64,000 nt of DNA from Candidatus Thorarchaeota archaeon (GCA_020348985.1 CP070761.1:1107713-1171712), one strand, 5' to 3'. Positions 2,179 to 62,667 are shown, counted from the stretch's first letter. A program made the numbers and translations. The notes: generated by a model from the letters alone, not told the origin.

Positions 2179-3732
2179 CTAGACAGCACCTCTTCTTTTC
2201 GTAATAACAATAGCAACGATGAGAAAAGATACGAATCCCGCAATTGTGAGCGGTAGAAGCTCATCTGGCAGAATCCATGAGCTATTTCCAGGGTAGAAGG
2301 GAGGCGTCGGAGTGAATGTGCCTGCTGTGCCGTTTGGATAGTGATCGATTGCCCCTTCTCCGGGTATGACATAGACAGCACCTGGTACGAGATCGTCCCA
2401 GTAGTTACCGCACGAAACGCCATCGTCCCATGAGCTGCCTGTGCCCCAATCAAATGCGTTGTAGTCGATGTTCCCTCCGAAGGTGTTGTAGTAGATTTCG
2501 TGACCCCATGCGCTTTTTACCTGCAGACCAATACCACCATTCTCTAGAATCTCGTTGCCAATGATTCTGCACTCATAACCGTTGATAATCAGAATACCAT
2601 TTCCTGTGTTATCAGAAACCAAGCTGTCCAGAAGTTGAATTCTCCTACTGCCGTTAAGAAGACGAATTCCCGCCCAGTTTTGGGCGATGACTGCATCAGT
2701 AAGCGTGCAATTGCTTGAATTGCGCACCTGCACTCCATAATGGTTCTGGCTGGATGTAAAGCTTGAGATGTGGCAGTGACCGCTATAGGTCATTAGAACG
2801 CCCACGCTAGCACGATTGAACTCACCACCTTCGATGGACACGTTTCTGCAGTCAAAGAGAATCAGTTGTCCATAATCAGTACCGTCCAGCCAGGCATCTT
2901 CTAGATTATTGAAGTAACCGAGATTCTTCCCATTGACAGTGCAGTTTTCCACTGTGGCATTGTAATCGTACTTCTCAAGACTATCAAAGAACAGACCATT
3001 GTCGAGCAAAGTGTTGTTGATGATTGTGCTGTCCCACGATTCGAAGAGTCCGACCCCCCAAGTGAAATTGGAGATAGTATTGTTGTGCAGAATTATTGAT
3101 CCTGACTCACTTACATGAACTCCATTTCCTCCACCGTCTTGACGAGACCGCATAACATTAGACTCCAATTGACAATTGACTGAATCGAAGACTGAAACTC
3201 CACCACCTTCAATATGATTCCGTGAGACTAAGCAGTAGCTACTGGCCTCCAAGATTATTGGGTCCCAAGAATCTCGAATCTCACATCTCGTTATCCTGCA
3301 ATTCACAGATGCATCAAGGATGATACCGATATCAAGAGAAGAGAATGTGCAATTCTCGACTCTGCCGTTTCGTACCATTTGGAAAGAGACTCCGAATGAG
3401 TTGTTTTCCGGACTGTCTCTTGAAAACGTACAGTCTCTAATCACGAAATAGGAGACCGTTTCGATGATTGTGATGGCCGTGCCACTTGTTGAGAATTCGA
3501 GATTTGAGATCACATACGGATCATCTCCAGTGCCAGAACCTGGAAATCCCAAGTCAGTGAAATTGGAGTCATCTATTATCAGGATTGGATTATCTGACAC
3601 ACGGATGAGTGCAGCAGAGAAGAGCTTCTCTTCAAAAGGTTGCTTGGGTTGCTTTGATTCTCCGGGAATGCACACGAAAGACAACAGAAGCAACAACACA
3701 GCAAAACAGAACCCCGCTCTACCGCAATTCAC
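2179..3732 (-). CDS. Surface-anchored right-handed parallel beta-helix (NosD/pectin-lyase fold) protein
   Basis: Signal peptide, G.GT..DPYVI.N motif, repeated NCTI/N.I..N units, GNYWDD..IDHYP terminus, C-terminal TM followed by KRR. Confidence 0.85.
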   Translation of the reverse strand: MNCGRAGFCFAVLLLLLSFVCIPGESKQPKQPFEEKLFSAALIRVSDNPILIIDDSNFTDLGFPGSGTGDDPYVISNLEFSTSGTAITIIETVSYFVIRDCTFSRDSPENNSFGVSFQMVRNGRVENCTFSSLDIGIILDASVNCRITRCEIRDSWDPIILEASSYCLVSRNHIEGGGVSVFDSVNCQLESNVMRSRQDGGGNGVHVSESGSIILHNNTISNFTWGVGLFESWDSTIINNTLLDNGLFFDSLEKYDYNATVENCTVNGKNLGYFNNLEDAWLDGTDYGQLILFDCRNVSIEGGEFNRASVGVLMTYSGHCHISSFTSSQNHYGVQVRNSSNCTLTDAVIAQNWAGIRLLNGSRRIQLLDSLVSDNTGNGILIINGYECRIIGNEILENGGIGLQVKSAWGHEIYYNTFGGNIDYNAFDWGTGSSWDDGVSCGNYWDDLVPGAVYVIPGEGAIDHYPNGTAGTFTPTPPFYPGNSSWILPDELLPLTIAGFVSFLIVAIVITKRRGAV

Positions 3733-3908
3733 TGTATTTCAATCCCCTTGAACCACGTCAACGCCTACTATGTCATCTGTGCTCCTATTACTCTGTCGGC
3801 AAATGGTGCTGAACACCAATTCGTTTCCGGAAAGAGTTCTTTTGCGTATCAGATTGAGACCCGAATAGTGAAATGCAGGACCCACTAAGGATTAGTTGCG
3901 TGCGTAAC

Positions 3909-54561: not shown

Positions 54562-56250
54562 CTACACCTCAACCTTGCCCAGGCTTCTGACGCCCAAGAA
54601 CAGCATCAGGCCACCCATGAGCAACAATGCCACTGGACCCATGATGGCTTGTGTGAACCAGAAACCATCTACACCGAAGATGTTCTCAATGACGCGAAAG
54701 ATGTTGACATCCAATGCGATACTGAAGAATATGTCGATGAAGAGGGGAGCAATCAGTGTAAACTGGGTCAACAACATGGAGCCTATTAGAACACTCTGAT
54801 GGGCTGGAGACTTCGTGTCTTCATAGTTAGGGTTCTGAGCTGTCATGCCCATGCTTACCATGACAGCACCGCAAACTATGATGTATGAAGATGCAATCAT
54901 CTGCAACGCCATCAATGGCTCAAGTGCAAACATGACACTGACTACAACACTTGGAGCAAGACTTAGAGGAAAGGCCAGTAGGAATCCTGACGCGAGTCTG
55001 GCACGCATGAAGCGAGAAGCACCAGATGGTGCACTCCGGATTATCCAAAGCTGGTCCTTGCTCTCAAGGAATCCTGTTCCTGCGAATGGGAAGACTCCGA
55101 CAACACCAATCATTATGCCAATCATTGGCAGAATATCCATGGCCGTGACGGTGTCACCATCGTAGACAGCAATCTGGGACATGATAATCGGAAGTACTAC
55201 CGCCAGTACAACACCGTAGAGAATCTTTGAAATATTCTGAACCTTTCTGCCAAAGTCCTTCAGACTCACCACTGTCAACGCACCAAAAGATCCCTTGGCT
55301 GCTCTCCGGACTCCGCGTATCACAAAGTTCTCTCGACCTACAGTTGTGACGGTCTCAGTGCGCACACCGGCACTGATTGTGAAAACTCTGTCTGCAGCAC
55401 TTAATGCAATTGGCACCCATACCAAGCCGAATGCTGCTGTTAGGAGTAGACTCGTCCACATGTCGAGCTGCAAAATCGCCCCAAAGCCCAGTATCTGAGA
55501 GCCAGTCAAACCAATACCATTGAAGGCTATCGCAATCCAGCTGACCAAGTCTGCTGGCCATGTGAATGGCATTAGCAGAAATGCATTCATTCCTAGAATA
55601 TCAGACAACACTGGCATGAAGAACATCACACCGTACATAGGCACTATCACAATCAGTGCAATAACGAAGGTCAATGCCTTAGCTATGTCGTTTCCGCGTG
55701 GTGAATCCCCAAGTCTTGCTTGGACCAATGCCGTCACGAAGTTGGAGAGCCAGATGGTTGAAAGAACCATGGCTGCAATCGCACTGTATACCAAAGCCTG
55801 ACCTAGGAACGAAACTTCAAACGCTAGCATGAATGGAGATATCATTAGGGGAGCAAGTATCACTACAACCAATCCGTAGAATGGTATCTTGCCAGCGAAA
55901 GTGCCAATGATTATGTCCTTTGTTCTCACGTTGTTTGAGAGGAAAATCTCCCATTGACCAATCTTAATCTCCTGTAGGGCGAAGGACAGTGGGTATAATA
56001 GCAACAATATCCACAGGAACAGCATTACTGTACGCATGAGTCCAGGGAACATAGACATCAACAGTAGTCGAATCTGTGACATTGGAATCAGCGACTGTAT
56101 GATGAAGCCCATGATCGTTGGTGCCAAGTACGCGGCCCATACGATAGCTAATGCATACATGCTTGCCACGGTGACTGTTCTGTGGCTCCTGAAGCTCGAG
56201 GTCAAGACGTAGAACTCAGCCTTCGCGATGCTTAGCCACTTTCGGGTCAA
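54562..56250 (-). CDS. ABC exporter membrane subunit, paralogue 1
   Basis: Directly downstream of the ABC ATPase; about 12-13 TM; paralogous to 50957-52600. Confidence 0.82.
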   Translation of the reverse strand: MTRKWLSIAKAEFYVLTSSFRSHRTVTVASMYALAIVWAAYLAPTIMGFIIQSLIPMSQIRLLLMSMFPGLMRTVMLFLWILLLLYPLSFALQEIKIGQWEIFLSNNVRTKDIIIGTFAGKIPFYGLVVVILAPLMISPFMLAFEVSFLGQALVYSAIAAMVLSTIWLSNFVTALVQARLGDSPRGNDIAKALTFVIALIVIVPMYGVMFFMPVLSDILGMNAFLLMPFTWPADLVSWIAIAFNGIGLTGSQILGFGAILQLDMWTSLLLTAAFGLVWVPIALSAADRVFTISAGVRTETVTTVGRENFVIRGVRRAAKGSFGALTVVSLKDFGRKVQNISKILYGVVLAVVLPIIMSQIAVYDGDTVTAMDILPMIGIMIGVVGVFPFAGTGFLESKDQLWIIRSAPSGASRFMRARLASGFLLAFPLSLAPSVVVSVMFALEPLMALQMIASSYIIVCGAVMVSMGMTAQNPNYEDTKSPAHQSVLIGSMLLTQFTLIAPLFIDIFFSIALDVNIFRVIENIFGVDGFWFTQAIMGPVALLLMGGLMLFLGVRSLGKVEV

Positions 56251-56254
56251 GACA

Positions 56255-57025
56255 TCACCTCCAGGCCAGGAGTGCTTCGCGGTCTACTTGACCTCCAACT
56301 ATCTGCAGGTAGGCTTCCTCAAGGTCGCTGACATGGGCTGCCTGGATTATATCCTCAGGAGAGCCAAGTGTGACTAGCTCACCTTCGTTCAGAATCCCTA
56401 TGACGTCACAGACATCTTCGGCGAAGCTTGTCATGTGCGTGCAGATGAAGAAGCTCGTCTCGGTCTCTTCTGCGAGGACAAGAATCAAGTCCTTCACAAG
56501 TGCACTTGCAGAGGGATCAAGCCTTGAAGTGGGCTCGTCCAGAAAGACTAGCTTTGGCTCATGTAGCAGAGTAGAGGCTACCAACACTTTTTGCTTCATA
56601 CCAGAAGAGTACGACTCCAGAAGGTCATCTTGTCTTCCCTCAAGACCAAGCATTCCAAGTAATGCGTCAATCCTCTTCATGAGAGACTCGCCATTGTGGT
56701 CGTTGAGTGCGCCAATGAACTCAAGAAACTCAACAGCTGAGAGTTTCGAGTAAAGCCCCGGTGACTCAGGAAGGAGACCAGTGATTGCTTTGATCTCGTC
56801 TCTCTGGGTGTCAATATCAAGTCCGCAGACCTTTCCTCTCCCGCTCGTCTGTTTGAGCAAGCCAGACAGAATACGAACGGTGGTTGTCTTGCCGGCCCCA
56901 TTAGGACCAAGGAAACCGAATCTGCTTCCAGCACGTACCTCTAGATCGAGGTCCACAACTGCGCGAACTGGCCCGAAGGTCTTGTTCAGCGCTTCTGTTT
57001 GAATCACTATACCGTTTCCGGTCAT
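56255..57025 (-). CDS. ABC transporter ATP-binding protein (exporter type)
   Basis: GPNGAGKTT, YSSGMKQK, LDEPT, H-loop. Confidence 0.96.
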   Translation of the reverse strand: MTGNGIVIQTEALNKTFGPVRAVVDLDLEVRAGSRFGFLGPNGAGKTTTVRILSGLLKQTSGRGKVCGLDIDTQRDEIKAITGLLPESPGLYSKLSAVEFLEFIGALNDHNGESLMKRIDALLGMLGLEGRQDDLLESYSSGMKQKVLVASTLLHEPKLVFLDEPTSRLDPSASALVKDLILVLAEETETSFFICTHMTSFAEDVCDVIGILNEGELVTLGSPEDIIQAAHVSDLEEAYLQIVGGQVDREALLAWR

Positions 57026-57154: not shown

Positions 57155-57763
57155 ATGGGACTACTCTCAATTCACGAATCAGTTGTCTGGTGGGAATACC
57201 AGCACGGTAAATCCACTGGCGATATATTCAGTGAGTATGAGAGACCCATGCCAACTCCGAAACATGTCCTTGATGTCTACGGGCGTCTAATTGACGAAAA
57301 AACAAAGAGCGATGAGGACAAGAAGAAGGAGAAGGAAAAGATTCAGACAACAGAGCTGAAGAGTGCAGCTTACGTGTCACGTGTTCTCAGCAGGGCGAAG
57401 GAAAAGATTGGCAAGGAGCTCAGTAATCATGCCAACAGCCATCGTCTTGATGTTGAGACAGTCTTGGATGACAAGGGGTACTTGAAGGGCTTCGATTATC
57501 AGGCCAATACGGAAGTATTCATCATCTTCACTTTGGATTTAGGAGTGGTAGTCTGGTACAGGCACGACTCTTATGCTGGGAAGCTCTGTCCCGACTGTCC
57601 GAAGGAAGAGGAATGTAGACAGACACTTGATACGACTCTGCTTGAATACGACTTGACGCTTAGGCCGGATCAAGAAGAGCTTCACATGACACGGCAGTCG
57701 ATTGCAATCTTCAACAAGCTTGCGGCCAAGGAAGTTCCTCGCTACAAGAGACAAGAAGAGTAA
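57155..57763 (+). CDS. Putative transcriptional regulator (sigma-70 region-4-like HTH with insertion; C-terminal Cys cluster)
   Basis: LS..E..VWW....GKST.DI ... S.AYVSRVL.RAKEKI; CPDC-x5-C. Confidence 0.55.
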   Translation: MGLLSIHESVVWWEYQHGKSTGDIFSEYERPMPTPKHVLDVYGRLIDEKTKSDEDKKKEKEKIQTTELKSAAYVSRVLSRAKEKIGKELSNHANSHRLDVETVLDDKGYLKGFDYQANTEVFIIFTLDLGVVVWYRHDSYAGKLCPDCPKEEECRQTLDTTLLEYDLTLRPDQEELHMTRQSIAIFNKLAAKEVPRYKRQEE

Positions 57764-57776
57764 TGGATGTGAGATA

Positions 57777-58526
57777 ATGAGTTCGGGATACGATGAACGA
57801 GTGATTAAGCCTCCTTTGGAGTCAGTGGCGTTTGGTAGGGTATTCAAGCCCACAGCGTCGCTTCGCAACAAGTACTGGTTTATAGCCATCATCACCGCCC
57901 TTATCATGTATTTGACGACTATTGGAACATTCTTCGGAATAATGTACATGGTCTATTCAATCAATCAGACTCTGTTTCAATGGCAGACCTGGTTCGACTC
58001 GTTCTGGGGACCAGTGAACTTCTGGTTCTGGGGAATTGCCTTGGTGATTCTGATACCTTACATTGTCGGCGTACCTATCTACCTGAACAGGTTCGAGTAC
58101 TCTGTAAGAGGCGAGTCCGGTGAAACGATGCCGGAGGTTTATGTCAAGAAGGGCATCATTAACGTAACCGTCAAGCATGTTCCTCTGAGAACGATTACCA
58201 ATATATCAACAAGGACAGGACCGTTTGACAGACTCTTCAAGATTGGCAATGTTGAGATTCACACAGCAGGGCAATCTGGCAGCTACTATGAAGCAGGAAA
58301 GCCGGAGGAAAAAATCGAGGGAATCGTGTTCTACGAAGAACTTAGAGACTACATACTTGGTGAGATGCGGAAGCTGAAGGGCACTTATGCAGTTGGAACC
58401 GAGGTACTCACACCTGATGAGACTCCTATACCTGGAAACATAGACGAAGCTATTCTCACGACGCTTCGACAGCTTCGCGACATCTTGAGAAGAATGGACG
58501 AGAAACTAGACCGAGGAGGATATTGA
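57777..58526 (+). CDS. Two-TM plus bacterial PH domain (bPH_2, YdbS-like) protein 1
   Basis: Y.V....E.YVKKGII....KHVP...ITNI....GP.DRLF.IG.V.I.TAG; start at ATG 57777. Confidence 0.88.
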   Translation: MSSGYDERVIKPPLESVAFGRVFKPTASLRNKYWFIAIITALIMYLTTIGTFFGIMYMVYSINQTLFQWQTWFDSFWGPVNFWFWGIALVILIPYIVGVPIYLNRFEYSVRGESGETMPEVYVKKGIINVTVKHVPLRTITNISTRTGPFDRLFKIGNVEIHTAGQSGSYYEAGKPEEKIEGIVFYEELRDYILGEMRKLKGTYAVGTEVLTPDETPIPGNIDEAILTTLRQLRDILRRMDEKLDRGGY

Positions 58527-58528
58527 AA

Positions 58529-58636
58529 ATGCGACCGTTGAGTAGACGCGTGCTGGCCATATTGAGCGTTATGGGCACCTTCTCGAGTCTCTTCATCTAC
58601 TTTCTACTGATTAGTCTATCAGGAGGGTTCTCATAA
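58529..58636 (+). CDS. Single-TM micropeptide A, 35 aa (MRPLSRRVLAILSVMGTFSSLFIYFLLISLSGGFS)
   Basis: GAGGAGG 9 nt upstream; stop overlaps the next start (TAATG); exactly fills the gap. Confidence 0.75.
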   Translation: MRPLSRRVLAILSVMGTFSSLFIYFLLISLSGGFS

Positions 58637-59376
58637 TGGGTAAGGAAAAGAGTAGCAAAGTAATCAAACCACCACTGGAGAGGATTGCAAGCGGGAAGGT
58701 CTTCAGACCAGCGAGAGCTTTCATCTACAAGGGATGGTTTGATGGCATCTTGGTTGCCATTGGAATTTGGTTGTTTGGAGTAGTGTGTGCGTTTGGAATC
58801 GGTTGGATTGTTGTCGTAGCAGAAGGCATTCTTGTTGAAGAATTCTGGGGAGCGGTAGCCTACTGGTGGGGACCCGCCAATTTCTGGTATTGGCTGATAA
58901 CGGCAATATGGCTGACCCCTGCGGTGATAATCTGGCCGTTCTATGTTCGAAGAATCGAATACTCTGTAATTGCAGAAAGCGGGAAAACAATGCCCGAGAT
59001 CTACGTCAGGAAAGGCATAATCACGATTACTGAGAAGCACGTTCCGTTCCGCACGATCACAAACATCTCAAGTCGCGCCGGTCCGATTGACAGGCTCTTC
59101 GGAATAGGGAGCGTGTGGATCCAGACCGCGGGATACTCAGGCGGCGCTCAGGCGGGAGCAAAACCCGAGGAGAAGTTGGAGGGCATTCACATCTTTGAGG
59201 CGGTTAGGGACTTTGTCCTCAGAGAGCTTCGTAGGTTCAGAGACCCCTATGTGACTGGAACAGAAGTCGTATCTCCAAGACCTGAAGCGGCCGTGACAGA
59301 AGGGACATCCTCGCAGGAAGAAATCCTTGGTGTTCTGAGAGAGATCAGAGATCTGCTCAGGCGCGAGAGAGAATAG
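58636..59376 (+). CDS. Two-TM plus bPH_2 protein 2 (paralogue)
   Basis: VIKPPLE..A.G.VF.P, ESG.TMPE.YV.KGII, KPEEK.EGI shared with protein 1. Confidence 0.88.
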   Translation: MGKEKSSKVIKPPLERIASGKVFRPARAFIYKGWFDGILVAIGIWLFGVVCAFGIGWIVVVAEGILVEEFWGAVAYWWGPANFWYWLITAIWLTPAVIIWPFYVRRIEYSVIAESGKTMPEIYVRKGIITITEKHVPFRTITNISSRAGPIDRLFGIGSVWIQTAGYSGGAQAGAKPEEKLEGIHIFEAVRDFVLRELRRFRDPYVTGTEVVSPRPEAAVTEGTSSQEEILGVLREIRDLLRRERE

Positions 59377-59386
59377 CAGTCTAAGA

Positions 59387-59575
59387 GTGATGAGAATGGT
59401 TTCAGCAAGCAGAGTACTGGGAATCATCCTAGTGGTCGCGGGATTCGTTCTTATCCTCTTCCGAGTTGTCGAAGCCATAGCAGGATTCCCCTTCCTCATG
59501 GAGCAATTGCTATTGGGATTCTTCGTTTTGTTGATAGGGCTATCATTGATGGGGAGACTACGTAAGATTGGATAG
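59387..59575 (+). CDS. Two-TM small membrane protein B (59-62 aa)
   Basis: Two hydrophobic helices; homologous to the N-terminal part of 59737-60006. Confidence 0.75.
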   Translation: MMRMVSASRVLGIILVVAGFVLILFRVVEAIAGFPFLMEQLLLGFFVLLIGLSLMGRLRKIG

Positions 59576-59587
59576 GAGAAATGTAAA

Positions 59588-59692
59588 TTGAGTAGCAGAA
59601 TCGTTGCGCGTTTCATTGTTTTACTGATTGGGATTATCCTGTTCGTGATTTTCCTGTTTGGGTTTTTCATGATGGGCGGATCTTTCTCGTAG
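59588..59692 (+). CDS. Single-TM micropeptide C, 34 aa (MSSRIVARFIVLLIGIILFVIFLFGFFMMGGSFS)
   Basis: AGGAG 9 nt before TTG; clear similarity to peptide G and to the C-terminus of D. Confidence 0.78.
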   Translation: MSSRIVARFIVLLIGIILFVIFLFGFFMMGGSFS

Positions 59693-59736
59693 AACTTCAT
59701 GAATGGACGTGAGTATCTGACGGGATGTGGTGACGA

Positions 59737-60006
59737 TTGGTTTTAGGAAGACGAGACCGAGGAGTCGTTTTGGCTATCGCAGGACTCTTCCTAATGTTCT
59801 TTCAGATAATCGATCTAGTCATTGGAGGGTCCTACTTCGGCGGCTTTGGACTCCTGGGAGCATTCATCTTTCTGATTGGATTGACCGTTGTCGGAAGAGC
59901 ATTGACTAGCAGAAAGGCTGCATGGTATTCTACCTTCTTCATTGGCATTGTGTTGTTTGTGTTCTTCCTAGTCGTCTACCTAATGAAGGGAGGAATGCTA
60001 CCCTAG
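59737..60006 (+). CDS. Three-TM small membrane protein D (apparent fusion of B-like and C-like units)
   Basis: GGTGA RBS; LLGAFIFLIGLTVVGR resembles B; IGIVLFVFFL...GG resembles C. Confidence 0.78.
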   Translation: MVLGRRDRGVVLAIAGLFLMFFQIIDLVIGGSYFGGFGLLGAFIFLIGLTVVGRALTSRKAAWYSTFFIGIVLFVFFLVVYLMKGGMLP

Positions 60007-60023
60007 GATAGGAGTCTGCTAGA

Positions 60024-60119
60024 ATGGTTACAGTTCAAAGAGTTGTCTTCAAAATCGCCCTCATGATTGTGGCAATTGTGCTTCTCCTGATAGGATTGTT
60101 CCTCTTTTCGATGTTCTAG
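60024..60119 (+). CDS. Single-TM micropeptide E, 31 aa (MVTVQRVVFKIALMIVAIVLLLIGLFLFSMF)
   Basis: AGGAG 9 nt upstream; R-x3-K followed by 21 mostly hydrophobic residues, like its siblings. Confidence 0.72.
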   Translation: MVTVQRVVFKIALMIVAIVLLLIGLFLFSMF

Positions 60120-60199
60120 GCGGGGTGGCCCAGTCTAGGCTCTTCAAACCCATGAGATAAAAGGGAGAGGAACGGTCTGTTTCCGGTTAGGATTCTACT

Positions 60200-61468
60200 A
60201 TGGCCATAGAGGACACACCATTCGTGTACAGAACACGATTAGACAAAAGCCTCTATGCATTCTATTACGCTACTGAGGGTTTCGCCACCACTGGAATCCT
60301 TACTTTTCTGCCCCTATACGTGAGGGATTATGTCCTTATCCCTGAGGCCCTTCTTGGGATCCTTTTGGCAATAGCAGCGATTCCAGCATTCATTAAGGTT
60401 TTCTATGGCCTTGTTAGCGATTCTAGATCCATTGGTGGGATGGGGCACAGAAGACCCTATGTACTCCTCTCAGTTCCGATGACTATTGGAGCATGGCTAC
60501 TGTTTCCATTAGTCACCGAGGCGGTTCTGTTCACTACATTGGTATTTCTTGCCTCTGTTGGATTCTCGATAGGAGACACTGCTGTTGATGCTTGGGCAGT
60601 AGAGATAACTCCAACGAAAGAGAGGGGATCAATGATGGGGATTGCTTGGGGAGCTCAGGGGATTGCTTCGGTCATGGGAGCGCTTGCAACCACCATCGTT
60701 GGACCGGCATATGGATTCACAACAGCTTTCGCCTTGCTTGGGATAGTCCAAGGATTTGGTGGAATTGTCTGGTTTGTATTCGCAAGAGAGAAGCCTATTG
60801 TGCACAGGAAGACGATCCACGGTACACTAGGATCATTGAAAGAGGAACTGAGACACAGGTATCTTTGGCTTGCATTCTTGGCCTTCATATTCGGCGGCTT
60901 TGTGTTTGGAGTGGGCTCCAATTTCATGACCTTGTTCTTTGAAGATGTTGTAGGCGCATCCGAGACAGAGATAGGAGTGTTGGTTCTTGTCTGGTCTCTG
61001 ATGTTCTTTGTGGGCGGAGCGATTGGTGGTTCAGTTTATGATAGATTCAAAGACCATCGGACAGGAATCTACACAATAGCGCCGGTCTATGCCATCTCAC
61101 TGTTCATGCTCACCCTCAATCAACATGGGGCATATGAGCTGGCATACGCGACTGCGATTTTCTACGGCCTAGGCAGCGGACTAACGACGGCAGCAGTCAT
61201 GGGGTTTGCTGCTCGGATAACACCTGCCGTTGTCACTGGAACTGTATTTGCAGTTATTACGTCTTTTGTGAACATAGGCCGGGCAGGGCTTGGGAATGTG
61301 TACTTGGGCTACATGGTGACGAACTACGACTACACACTGGCGTTCACTTTAGGAGCACTCATCGCATTTCCCATTATCTTGTTAGCTCGATTCATTGATC
61401 ACCCAAGACTTCATGAAGAGCTTGTTGAAAAACCTGCTATTGAAGAATCAACCTACGAAAATGAATAA
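60200..61468 (+). CDS. MFS transporter (AmpG/BT1-like)
   Basis: K.FYG..SD......G.RRPY, D.AVDAWAVE.....ERG, about 12 TM. Confidence 0.9.
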   Translation: MAIEDTPFVYRTRLDKSLYAFYYATEGFATTGILTFLPLYVRDYVLIPEALLGILLAIAAIPAFIKVFYGLVSDSRSIGGMGHRRPYVLLSVPMTIGAWLLFPLVTEAVLFTTLVFLASVGFSIGDTAVDAWAVEITPTKERGSMMGIAWGAQGIASVMGALATTIVGPAYGFTTAFALLGIVQGFGGIVWFVFAREKPIVHRKTIHGTLGSLKEELRHRYLWLAFLAFIFGGFVFGVGSNFMTLFFEDVVGASETEIGVLVLVWSLMFFVGGAIGGSVYDRFKDHRTGIYTIAPVYAISLFMLTLNQHGAYELAYATAIFYGLGSGLTTAAVMGFAARITPAVVTGTVFAVITSFVNIGRAGLGNVYLGYMVTNYDYTLAFTLGALIAFPIILLARFIDHPRLHEELVEKPAIEESTYENE

Positions 61469-61498
61469 CCTCAAAGGCGAGAGAGTCGTAGTTCTGCC

Positions 61499-61606
61499 AT
61501 GACACCTACGAGACTCATCCTCAAGGTCATTCTTCTGGTCTTTGTCGTTTTGCTTCTGGTAATCATCCTGTTGATTCAGTTTGGTCTTGTTCCAGGCCTT
61601 TCCTAG
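61499..61606 (+). CDS. Single-TM micropeptide F, 35 aa (MTPTRLILKVILLVFVVLLLVIILLIQFGLVPGLS)
   Basis: Same R-x3-K plus hydrophobic architecture; its TAG overlaps the RBS of G. Confidence 0.72.
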   Translation: MTPTRLILKVILLVFVVLLLVIILLIQFGLVPGLS

Positions 61607-61618
61607 GAGTGATGATAG

Positions 61619-61726
61619 ATGAGTGGGAGGATTGTCCTGAGAATCGCTGTTCTATTTCTGCTGATTCTATTACTCGCAATCTTTTTGCTTGGTTACTTTG
61701 TGCTCGGTGGAGGACTTTTTGGCTAG
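61619..61726 (+). CDS. Single-TM micropeptide G, 35 aa (MSGRIVLRIAVLFLLILLLAIFLLGYFVLGGGLFG)
   Basis: AGGAGTGA RBS; aligns without gaps with peptide C (MS.RIV.R...IFL.G.F..GG). Confidence 0.8.
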   Translation: MSGRIVLRIAVLFLLILLLAIFLLGYFVLGGGLFG

Positions 61727-61818: not shown

Positions 61819-62667
61819 CTATCCCAGATTCATACCGAGATCGTCCACAAGCTTCTCGAAATTGCGAAGACTTTGCTGGGCATTATCTCTGTCACGAACT
61901 TCGAATACGTACTGGATTGGTGATGGAGCAATCTCAGTCAAGAAGCGAAGCGGAGGCTCGAAGTCGATTGTACCCTCACCCACTATTTGATGTGAACCAC
62001 ATCGTTCAGACCAATCGTGAATGTGTACTACAGAGACAGATCTCCTATGTTTGTGGAAAACTGTCCAATCCTTGTCCTTGATCCTGCCCGTTGAATCGTA
62101 GAGCTTTGGTATATCGACACATAGCTTTAGCCCTTCCGAAATGAGAGATTCAATCGCGTCGTGGACAAGCGGGGTCCAGTTGTGGTTCTCAAGGACAATA
62201 TCAACGTCTGGAGAGGCATAGTCTATCAATTCAAGCAAGTTTCCAACCAGTGTGTTTAGGAAGTCGCCATAGAATGCCTTCACGAACTCATCTTTCATCA
62301 TTCGTGCCTGTTTCAGGCTCGGTAAGACTCCAGCGTGGACAACGAGATTTGTACTTGAGACGCTAACACTTCGGGCAAAGTCGATGATCCTCTTCAGGTA
62401 ATGAATGATGGCTCTCTTTACTGGTGCGTACGTAGCAAAGAGACTGATATCGTCACCAGGAGCGTGAAAACCCCAACCCACTCTGAGCTCTTGGGAGAGG
62501 TCTCGCAGCTTTTTTTTCTGCTCTTGGCTGTACTTCTCTGGAGCGAAGCGAGGGACACCAATGTCAGGGACGATGGAGGTCCAGTTATTCCCAGATGCGT
62601 AGTTTAGGGCATCCTCAAGTGAGCTATCATAGACCACGTGGTAGGCCCGATTGCTTGGAAGTGGCAT
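61819..62667 (-). CDS. Sugar phosphate isomerase/epimerase (AP endonuclease 2 TIM barrel)
   Basis: FHAP..D, VVHAG, LEN, C.D, HIHD, H...GEG.IDF, FEV. Confidence 0.85.
   Translation of the reverse strand: MPLPSNRAYHVVYDSSLEDALNYASGNNWTSIVPDIGVPRFAPEKYSQEQKKKLRDLSQELRVGWGFHAPGDDISLFATYAPVKRAIIHYLKRIIDFARSVSVSSTNLVVHAGVLPSLKQARMMKDEFVKAFYGDFLNTLVGNLLELIDYASPDVDIVLENHNWTPLVHDAIESLISEGLKLCVDIPKLYDSTGRIKDKDWTVFHKHRRSVSVVHIHDWSERCGSHQIVGEGTIDFEPPLRFLTEIAPSPIQYVFEVRDRDNAQQSLRNFEKLVDDLGMNLG

Follow-up and report, generated by a model that had tools for sequence, protein, structure and literature searches.

We analyzed a 64,000-nucleotide (nt) stretch of the genome of a Candidatus Thorarchaeota archaeon (hereafter the window; G000:C1:1107713-1171712, from a single-contig host genome of 3.16 Mb), concentrating on a plus-strand operon whose gaps between genes are largely filled by very small open reading frames (ORFs). 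The operon encodes, in this order, a 202-amino acid (aa) protein, a first membrane protein with a bPH_2 domain (PF03703), peptide A, a second bPH_2 protein, B, C, D, E, an MFS/BT1 transporter, F, and G. Its intergenic spacing is 2-44 nt, with the exception of 80 nt ahead of the MFS gene. Five of the small frames (A, C, E, F, and G) have 31-35 codons and, judging from the comparisons presented below, are almost certainly genuine genes, each encoding a tiny membrane protein with a single membrane-spanning segment. The original prediction for this stretch had pointed out these five frames, and all five proved to be open; B and D belong to the same set, though it did not list them.

Peptide A (58529-58636; 35 aa, one transmembrane (TM) segment) represents a separate subtype. 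It begins 2 nt past the stop codon of bPH_2 gene 1, is preceded by GAGGAGG at -9, and ends in a stop codon that overlaps the ATG of bPH_2 gene 2 (TAATG, 58634-58638), confirming the predicted coupling to the next gene. Peptide C (59588-59692; 34 aa, single TM), a core member of the family, starts with TTG and has AGGAG at -9, as does peptide E (60024-60119; 31 aa, single TM). No Shine-Dalgarno (SD)-like site was found for peptide F (61499-61606; 35 aa, single TM). Peptide G (61619-61726; 35 aa, single TM) has AGGAGTGA upstream and is the terminal member of the array, just ahead of a convergent TIM-barrel gene, the same position as that of the terminal peptides of relatives. The sites in front of A, C, E, and G are those that had been predicted, and the 3' end of the host 16S is GGATCACCTCC. 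The two larger members are B (59387-59575), an unannotated 62-aa two-TM protein that matches the N-terminal part of D, and D itself (59737-60006), an 89-aa three-TM protein; all seven genes are on the plus strand. An SD 5-mer lies 4-18 nt 5' of five of the seven small frames (all but B and F), and the corresponding rates are 6% for random 25-45-codon frames, 24% for ORFs of ≥250 aa, and 47% for the small frames of relatives. D is the sole annotated protein of the set; it is in NCBI nr and, from NCBI, in a collection of 15 billion proteins. A, B, C, E, F, and G are absent from that collection, and the earlier claim that the frames had been missed by the ORF track was therefore right.

Relatedness within the window was assessed with phmmer searches of the complete six-frame host genome, cut into 93,571 stop-to-stop segments. 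C and G were mutual best non-self matches (E-values 4e-4 and 8e-4) and, as had been predicted, can be aligned without internal gaps, at 50% identity. B and D were likewise mutual best matches (E-value about 2e-4; 1.4e-4 for D to B), and D also matched C (E-value 0.017). These matches indicate that D is a fusion in which a B-like hairpin is joined to a C-like helix, and C, G, and the C terminus of D can be read as clear paralogues. The best non-self match of F was G, yet with an E-value of 2, and A and E had no match in the six-frame host genome. A hidden Markov model (HMM) built from the window peptides, which is circular for the locus itself, detected no further copies elsewhere in the host genome, and a homologous-protein search with D recovered only D itself, as a 78-aa variant.

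A nucleotide search of 40 relatives matched only the bPH_2 genes, at ∼66-75% identity; the peptides are too diverged for comparison at this level. We collected ∼70 loci around bPH_2 homologues and listed all small hydrophobic frames on the bPH_2 strand; the resulting counts across genomes share ancestry and are not phylogenetically independent. These loci have a conserved layout, consisting of a divergent ABC ATPase and permease, a 160-220-aa protein, one to five tandem bPH_2 genes, a 30-39-codon single-TM frame, and a convergent TIM-barrel gene. Of 43 multi-copy arrays with their 3' end within the contig, 34 carry 30-39-codon single-TM frames directly after or between the bPH_2 genes, and none of the 8 single-copy bPH_2 loci does. 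The syntenic arrays that the original prediction proposed to look for were thus found in at least seven genera of the host's family (g1, g2, g3, g6, g8, g10, and g15). In the sister genus g6, the order is bPH, P1 (32 aa), T2 (70 aa, two TM), three further bPH genes, and P2 (30-33 aa), with T2 beginning 1 nt past the P1 stop codon; in genus g3, four or five bPH_2 genes are followed by a 31-32-aa frame. The bPH_2 arrays were found in 26 of 28 g6 genomes and 15 of 17 g3 genomes, and most arrays with an end on the contig carry peptides.

Some loci show individual features. The terminal frame of one g6 locus contains in-frame stops (L062 in G077; MR*TVAIGIVTFV*), and that of another has lost its start codon (L063 in G055). 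In genus g4 (L021 and L052-L054), whose arrays have three bPH_2 genes, a 176-aa GNAT-like gene takes the place of the downstream peptide. Genus g3 presents a trap for ORF-based screens: a 37-codon frame (MNDNASYEV...) runs across the gene of the 31-aa peptide in a different reading frame (L015:1581-1694 (-); L040, L042, and L043) and is "conserved" only through this overlap.

The window frames were linked to the family of the relatives by tests that are not circular. In the whole six-frame host genome, a P1 profile built from g6 only ranked C first (E-value 0.006), and a g6-only P2 profile ranked D first (E-value 0.0025), on its C-terminal helix. A motif derived from the relatives (Met, at most six residues, basic-x3-basic, and then 18 uncharged residues with a mean hydropathy of ≥2.3) matched 3 of 76,126 small frames of the host genome; these were C, E, and G, and the reversed genome gave no match. 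Because hhalign and HMMER statistics on TM segments are sensitive to composition, we used matched controls, comparing the frames by hhalign with the P1 profile alongside 143 composition-matched frames (single TM, basic N terminus) from the genome and its reverse. None of the 143 controls scored as high as C, F, or the C terminus of D, and for E and G, one did. In a phmmer search of a 517-kb six-frame database of the relatives' loci, the top matches of every window peptide were syntenic peptides: P1 peptides for E, the terminal peptides of three genomes (G052, G011, and G046) for F, and, for A, a 31-aa frame that directly follows the final bPH_2 gene of G016 (E-value 0.07), with LLISLSG in common. 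The joint alignment of window and relatives' peptides (A3) contains a near-invariant Arg near the N terminus, a near-invariant Phe within [GA]-x-[IV]-L-F, and a Tyr or Phe 5-6 residues past this motif; a Tyr or Phe stands 5-9 residues from the end in 42 of 45 peptides of relatives.

The original prediction had described all five peptides as one diversified paralogous family. This holds for C, E, F, and G and does not extend to A, because A has no significant similarity to the other four and 94 of the 143 controls scored as high as it did. On the evidence of sequence and gene order, C, E, F, G, the C-terminal helix of D, and probably A make up a family that is confined to positions within or at the end of tandem YdbS-like bPH_2 arrays in Thorarchaeota.

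The proposed check of the ratio of non-synonymous to synonymous substitutions (dN/dS) across relatives revealed purifying selection, with ratios around 0.25 in the g6 orthologue groups. Codon alignments analyzed by the Nei-Gojobori method, with bootstrap 95% confidence intervals (CI), gave a dN/dS of 0.25 for P1 (12 species; CI, 0.15-0.38), 0.26 for P2 (18 species; CI, 0.17-0.41), and 0.16 for T2 (10 species; CI, 0.10-0.23), and shifting the reading frame of these alignments by +1 or +2 gave values of 0.53-2.9. Pairwise differences by codon position were 0.36/0.13/0.44 for P1 and 0.52/0.24/0.64 for P2, the second position being the most conserved; this is the pattern of a protein that is kept hydrophobic, unlike that of a spacer. 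Strain variants of the window in sediment metagenomes from three studies included no indel or stop, and those in A were two synonymous changes and one Leu to Met replacement.

These data bear directly on the possibility that the set consists, in part or entirely, of chance ORFs that arose in T-rich spacers and are not translated. A chance origin is in keeping with the lack of a significant paralogue of A, with the location of the SD site of A inside the coding end of bPH_2 gene 1, with the lack of an SD site at F, and with the number of loosely defined single-TM small frames, which is 49 genome-wide versus 38 in the reversed genome. However, four such frames fall within 5 kb, where ∼0.08 would be expected, the substitution pattern by codon position fits coding sequence, and the profile search matches only syntenic peptides. 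Synteny, selection, non-circular membership, and the initiation signals and coupling argue in the same direction, and for C, E, F, and G the comparative data contradict a chance origin. We consider this explanation extremely unlikely for the set, with a higher probability for A alone, which is nevertheless probably a translated small single-pass membrane protein.

The original prediction had not recognized the family, and indeed it has no match in Pfam or NCBIfam. Searches of Pfam-A and NCBIfam gave no match at or near the cut-off for A, B, C, D, E, F, G, or the 68-70-aa T2 proteins, the best curated-family match being Ost5 (E-value 0.038; 14.7 bits versus a cut-off of 27.4). Against 1.84 billion representative proteins, the A3 profile returned 13 matches at E ≤1e-3, all of them 30-32 aa long and of P1 or P2 type; none of the 13 was a longer or fused protein. 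All three matches that we traced, to independent JGI, Logan, and ENA metagenome contigs, lie directly after a PF03703 gene, in an order as in g6 or g3. The micro-membrane-proteins that accompany the bPH_2 arrays of Thorarchaeota form a real, conserved family that is unnamed and new, and the architecture around it is of a known kind.

The T2 proteins of relatives form a family of their own, 68-73 aa long, with two TM segments, an invariant Glu in TM1, and a TLGGP loop, and are translationally coupled to P1 (examples are L022:5763-5975 and its equivalents and L088:1657-1863). Relatives of T2 fall into 85 clusters of 51-73 aa, all annotated as "hypothetical protein" of Thorarchaeota and without a Pfam family; no fused forms of ∼100 aa were found among the 85 clusters. 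A homology to T2 of B, or of the N terminus of D, was considered and found no support, as hmmsearch gave no match and hhalign a probability of 12%.

The window peptides have a grand average of hydropathy (GRAVY) of 2.0-2.35 (A, 1.2), a net charge of +2 (A, +3) that lies entirely within the first 10 residues, uncharged runs of 17-28 residues, and no Trp. The predicted R-x3-R/K spacing is present in C, E, F, and G. For such proteins, the positive-inside rule predicts an N-in/C-out orientation. The basic N terminus (R-x3-R/K), the hydrophobic stretch of 17-28 residues, and the tail of 4-8 residues predict that the peptides would be inserted in this orientation into the membrane of the cell that makes them. 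In the bPH_2 proteins, a basic N terminus and two hydrophobic segments come ahead of the PH domain, a layout that should place this domain in the cytoplasm, where the R-x3-K face of the peptides would also lie.

The small-residue or Gly-Gly tail, which the original prediction had taken for a feature shared by the family, did not hold up. GG stands 2-4 residues from the C terminus in A, C, D, and G only, and none of the 45 relatives' peptides has GG within its last seven residues; the tail is peculiar to the host genome. Since the GG tail is unconserved, we rejected processing of the C39 or double-glycine kind as a candidate, and the peptides also lack an N-terminal leader ending in GG or GA.

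Single-TM frames of another type, 32-36 aa long, occur in a second Asgard family (f22, genus g44), two of them standing in tandem behind a single bPH_2 gene (L085:3477-3587 and 3627-3734; L086:3616-3726 and 3753-3851). Their N terminus is acidic or neutral and their C terminus has a conserved basic motif (RFLRKITR / RRVTK), a charge layout that implies the opposite topology. Tandem arrays of two or three bPH_2 copies in the same f22 genomes have no peptides.

The two bPH_2 genes of the window (57702-58526 and 58636-59376, +) match PF03703 with E-values of 5e-10 and 3e-9 and scores of 39.9 and 37.7 bits, respectively, against a gathering cut-off of 22. Both translations have a hydrophobic hairpin ahead of the PH domain, and the first protein, like the second, is YdbS-like (TM hairpin plus one PH domain); the true start of its gene is probably the ATG at 57777, as read from the translation. 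Homologues of the second protein, with 45-68% identity, occur in 72 of 86 genomes of the host's family. One metagenome contig (run X5) joins position 58159 to 59035 with 13 other letters between them. This join would create a hybrid of the two bPH_2 genes without peptide A; its shorter side has 32 letters, so it may stem from a relative.

Upstream of the bPH_2 genes, the 202-aa protein (57155-57763, +) is conserved by position: an ORF of ∼150-220 aa (157-182 aa in family f22) lies immediately 5' of the bPH_2 genes in nearly all loci. It has no Pfam or NCBIfam family and contains a CPDCP...EC motif. Atlas feature matches to Tfx/Sigma70_r4 clusters scored 0.80-0.86, a weak likeness, and the nearest clusters, as well as the sole confident relatives by predicted structure, are unnamed proteins of Thor- and Bathyarchaeota. 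As a lead only, it is a possible Tfx- or sigma-70 region-4-like DNA-binding regulator. Divergent from the peptide operon are the genes for an ABC transporter ATPase (56255-57025, -; PF00005 ABC_tran, E-value 4e-24) and a 562-aa multi-TM ABC exporter permease without a Pfam match (54562-56250, -). In relatives, a conserved ORF of 256-260 aa occupies the ATPase position and, in most of them, a 12-13-TM ORF of ∼563 aa the permease position. Downstream of G, the convergent AP_endonuc_2 or xylose-isomerase-like TIM-barrel gene (61819-62667, -; PF01261, E-value 6e-16) corresponds to an opposite-strand ORF of 278-285 aa that comes after the terminal peptide in most relatives and forms the conserved downstream border.

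The MFS/BT1 transporter gene (60200-61468, +; PF07690, E-value 1e-41) raises the question of whether the peptides are accessory subunits of this transporter, or of the ABC transporter, in the manner of AcrZ or KdpF, as the original prediction had suggested. The MFS gene is closely flanked by E on its 5' side and by F and G on its 3' side, and the ABC exporter is a conserved neighbor of the module. However, the MFS gene is absent from the arrays of all other loci examined. The nearest homologue among the relatives searched (G024, L031:1250-2515) has no peptides nearby and is flanked by genes for an M28-like peptidase and a pyridoxal phosphate (PLP) enzyme, and G002, a genome of the same genus as the host, has two terminal peptides and no MFS gene at the locus. 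Because the transporter occurs without peptides and the peptides without the transporter, we rejected an MFS partner; the constant neighbors are the bPH_2 genes. The MFS/BT1 gene is probably a lineage-specific insertion into the array, outside the conserved module. Single-copy bPH_2 loci, moreover, retain the ABC genes yet have no peptides. Taken as a whole, a transporter-subunit role appears very unlikely.

A different comparison is offered by Firmicutes, in which YdbS/YdbT-like PHb2 proteins are encoded beside leaderless bacteriocin genes and ABC transporters (PMC8657885, PMC10311245). Leaderless bacteriocins comprise one to six unprocessed peptides of 27-70 aa that are cationic and form amphipathic helices in a saposin-like bundle (PMC10376788). 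Their clusters, such as those of enterocin DD14 (ddA-J), geobacillin 6 (geo6A-F, of the same layout; PMC10311245), aureocin A53, and lacticin Q, resemble the window in combining unprocessed small peptides with bPH_2 proteins and an ABC transporter. Handling of the peptides depends on the bPH_2 proteins (PMC8657885, PMC10376788, PMC10311245); in ddE or ddF deletion mutants, enterocin DD14 stays trapped in the cell and is toxic there (PMC8657885). The window peptides could, by this comparison, be exported leaderless cargo, like a bacteriocin or a hydrophobic pheromone, that is drawn out of the membrane or moved across it by the bPH_2 proteins and the ABC exporter and acts on other cells. The toxin and pheromone roles among the candidates of the original prediction thereby gain an analogy in the literature.

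The architecture of the window fits this comparison, with leaderless frames of 31-35 aa, PF03703 genes, and an ABC_tran ATPase gene that lies divergently upstream with its permease gene. The confinement of the peptides to multi-copy bPH_2 arrays and the unusually large, diversified tandem set of five to seven in the window also point toward cargo, and arrays of four bPH_2 copies would match the 1 + 3 PH domains of YdbS plus YdbT. The chemistry does not fit. Leaderless bacteriocins are strongly cationic, soluble toxins of high pI that form amphipathic saposin-like bundles (PMC10376788), whereas the window peptides are uniformly hydrophobic, with a single TM segment, uncharged runs of 17-28 residues, a GRAVY of ∼2, and a charge of about +2 at the N terminus. 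Further arguments against cargo are the fusion of a C-type helix into the three-TM protein D, the translational coupling to genes for membrane proteins, and a near-universal vertical conservation within genera (dN/dS ∼0.25) that is not sporadic. The archaeal systems also differ in spreading their PH domains over two to five single-domain genes, where Firmicutes have YdbS with one and YdbT with three, and in residing in an Asgard archaeon at a chromosomal locus that is conserved across genera; unlike the bacteriocins, their peptides are not known to be antimicrobial. We judge exported cargo to be unlikely. It is rather doubtful, too, that the array represents the first Asgard "leaderless" secreted peptides, ultra-hydrophobic archaeocins or signals of 30-35 residues that a hetero-oligomeric bPH_2 channel and the ABC exporter would lift from the membrane. 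If this were true, peptide export by bPH_2 and ABC proteins, so far known from Firmicutes bacteriocins only, would become a system shared by bacteria and archaea.

Toxins of the Hok, TisB, and Fst types are similar to the window peptides in size, in their single TM segment, and in having a basic end. This likeness raises the alternative of hydrophobic membrane toxins that act on the producer itself, like type I toxins or holins, and are neutralized by the bPH_2 proteins. In Enterococcus, loss of a bPH_2 protein does turn an endogenous peptide toxic (PMC8657885). Type I toxins, however, are stand-alone genes with an antisense RNA, frequently mobile and present in several copies; the window frames are sense-oriented members of an operon with SD sites and coupling, an antisense RNA not having been specifically searched for. 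They also occupy one chromosomal place across genera, with no other copies in the genome, and one of their helices has been fused into D. A self-acting toxin is, in our estimation, quite improbable.

We favor, with slightly better than even confidence, the view that the peptides are integral membrane partners of the bPH_2 assembly and not of the MFS transporter. They would stay in the membrane as small subunits or modulators of an oligomeric bPH_2 assembly. Known precedents are KdpF, AcrZ, and CydX, small accessory membrane proteins that are encoded in the operon of their partner complex. Like these, the window peptides are shorter than 50 aa, contain one TM helix, and carry no cleavable signal; their genes, tightly spaced or overlapping and of a kind that annotation routinely misses, lie in the operon of the presumed partner and are found only with bPH_2 arrays. 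They differ from KdpF, AcrZ, and CydX in having no sequence relationship to them, in the presumed bPH_2 partner, and in forming several paralogues per operon. A partner role agrees with their extreme, non-amphipathic hydrophobicity, with fusion D, with the coupling by overlap or a 1-nt gap, and with stable vertical conservation at one chromosomal place. Because D combines a B-like hairpin with a C-like helix, the peptide would work as a TM helix within a membrane protein; the fusion shows association with a two-TM protein and not with bPH_2.

Several observations weigh against such a partnership. Five peptides, together with B and D, for two bPH_2 genes would be an odd subunit stoichiometry. 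Genera g4 and g11 have intact bPH_2 arrays without peptides, and two g6 genomes have a decayed-looking terminal peptide beside four intact bPH_2 genes; because these g4, g11, and g6 arrays keep bPH_2 without peptides, the peptides are dispensable. The strain single-nucleotide polymorphisms in A, C, E, and G, only seven in all, comprise three synonymous and four non-synonymous changes, a number too small to inform on selection. In addition, in the only experimentally studied clusters where bPH_2 proteins occur together with small leaderless peptides, the peptides are exported cargo (PMC8657885).

The bPH_2 proteins themselves are comparable with YdbS-YdbT of Bacillus subtilis and Staphylococcus aureus (PF03703, COG3402/COG3428), with which they share a unit of TM hairpin and PH domain. 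The archaeal genes differ in being single-domain tandem paralogues preceded by the conserved, putatively regulatory protein of 160-220 aa. The literature consulted on these proteins describes no partner of YdbST that is a small TM peptide. Bacterial YdbS-YdbT have been linked to resistance or susceptibility to membrane-active peptides, according to work cited in PMC10311245, and in S. aureus pleurocidin and pexiganan select for loss-of-function mutations in ydbT (bioRxiv 10.64898/2026.07.05.736553). By analogy with YdbS/YdbT and DdE/DdF, the archaeal bPH_2 assembly and the ABC exporter encoded divergently from it would act together on membrane-active peptides or in envelope stress.

Archaeal annotations systematically miss small membrane proteins; here, the collection of 15 billion proteins lacks six of the seven small genes of one operon. 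The signature R-x(9-12)-[GA]-x-[IV]-L-F-x(5-6)-Y and the A3 profile allow the genes of this family to be annotated in Thorarchaeota genomes. With the peptides, bPH_2 proteins of the YdbS/YdbT type would gain a conserved, genetically coupled partner that can be used to probe their mechanism. The locus would also be an archaeal counterpart of the architecture of peptide, bPH_2, and ABC transporter, so that an ancient module for the handling of hydrophobic peptides becomes a testable idea.

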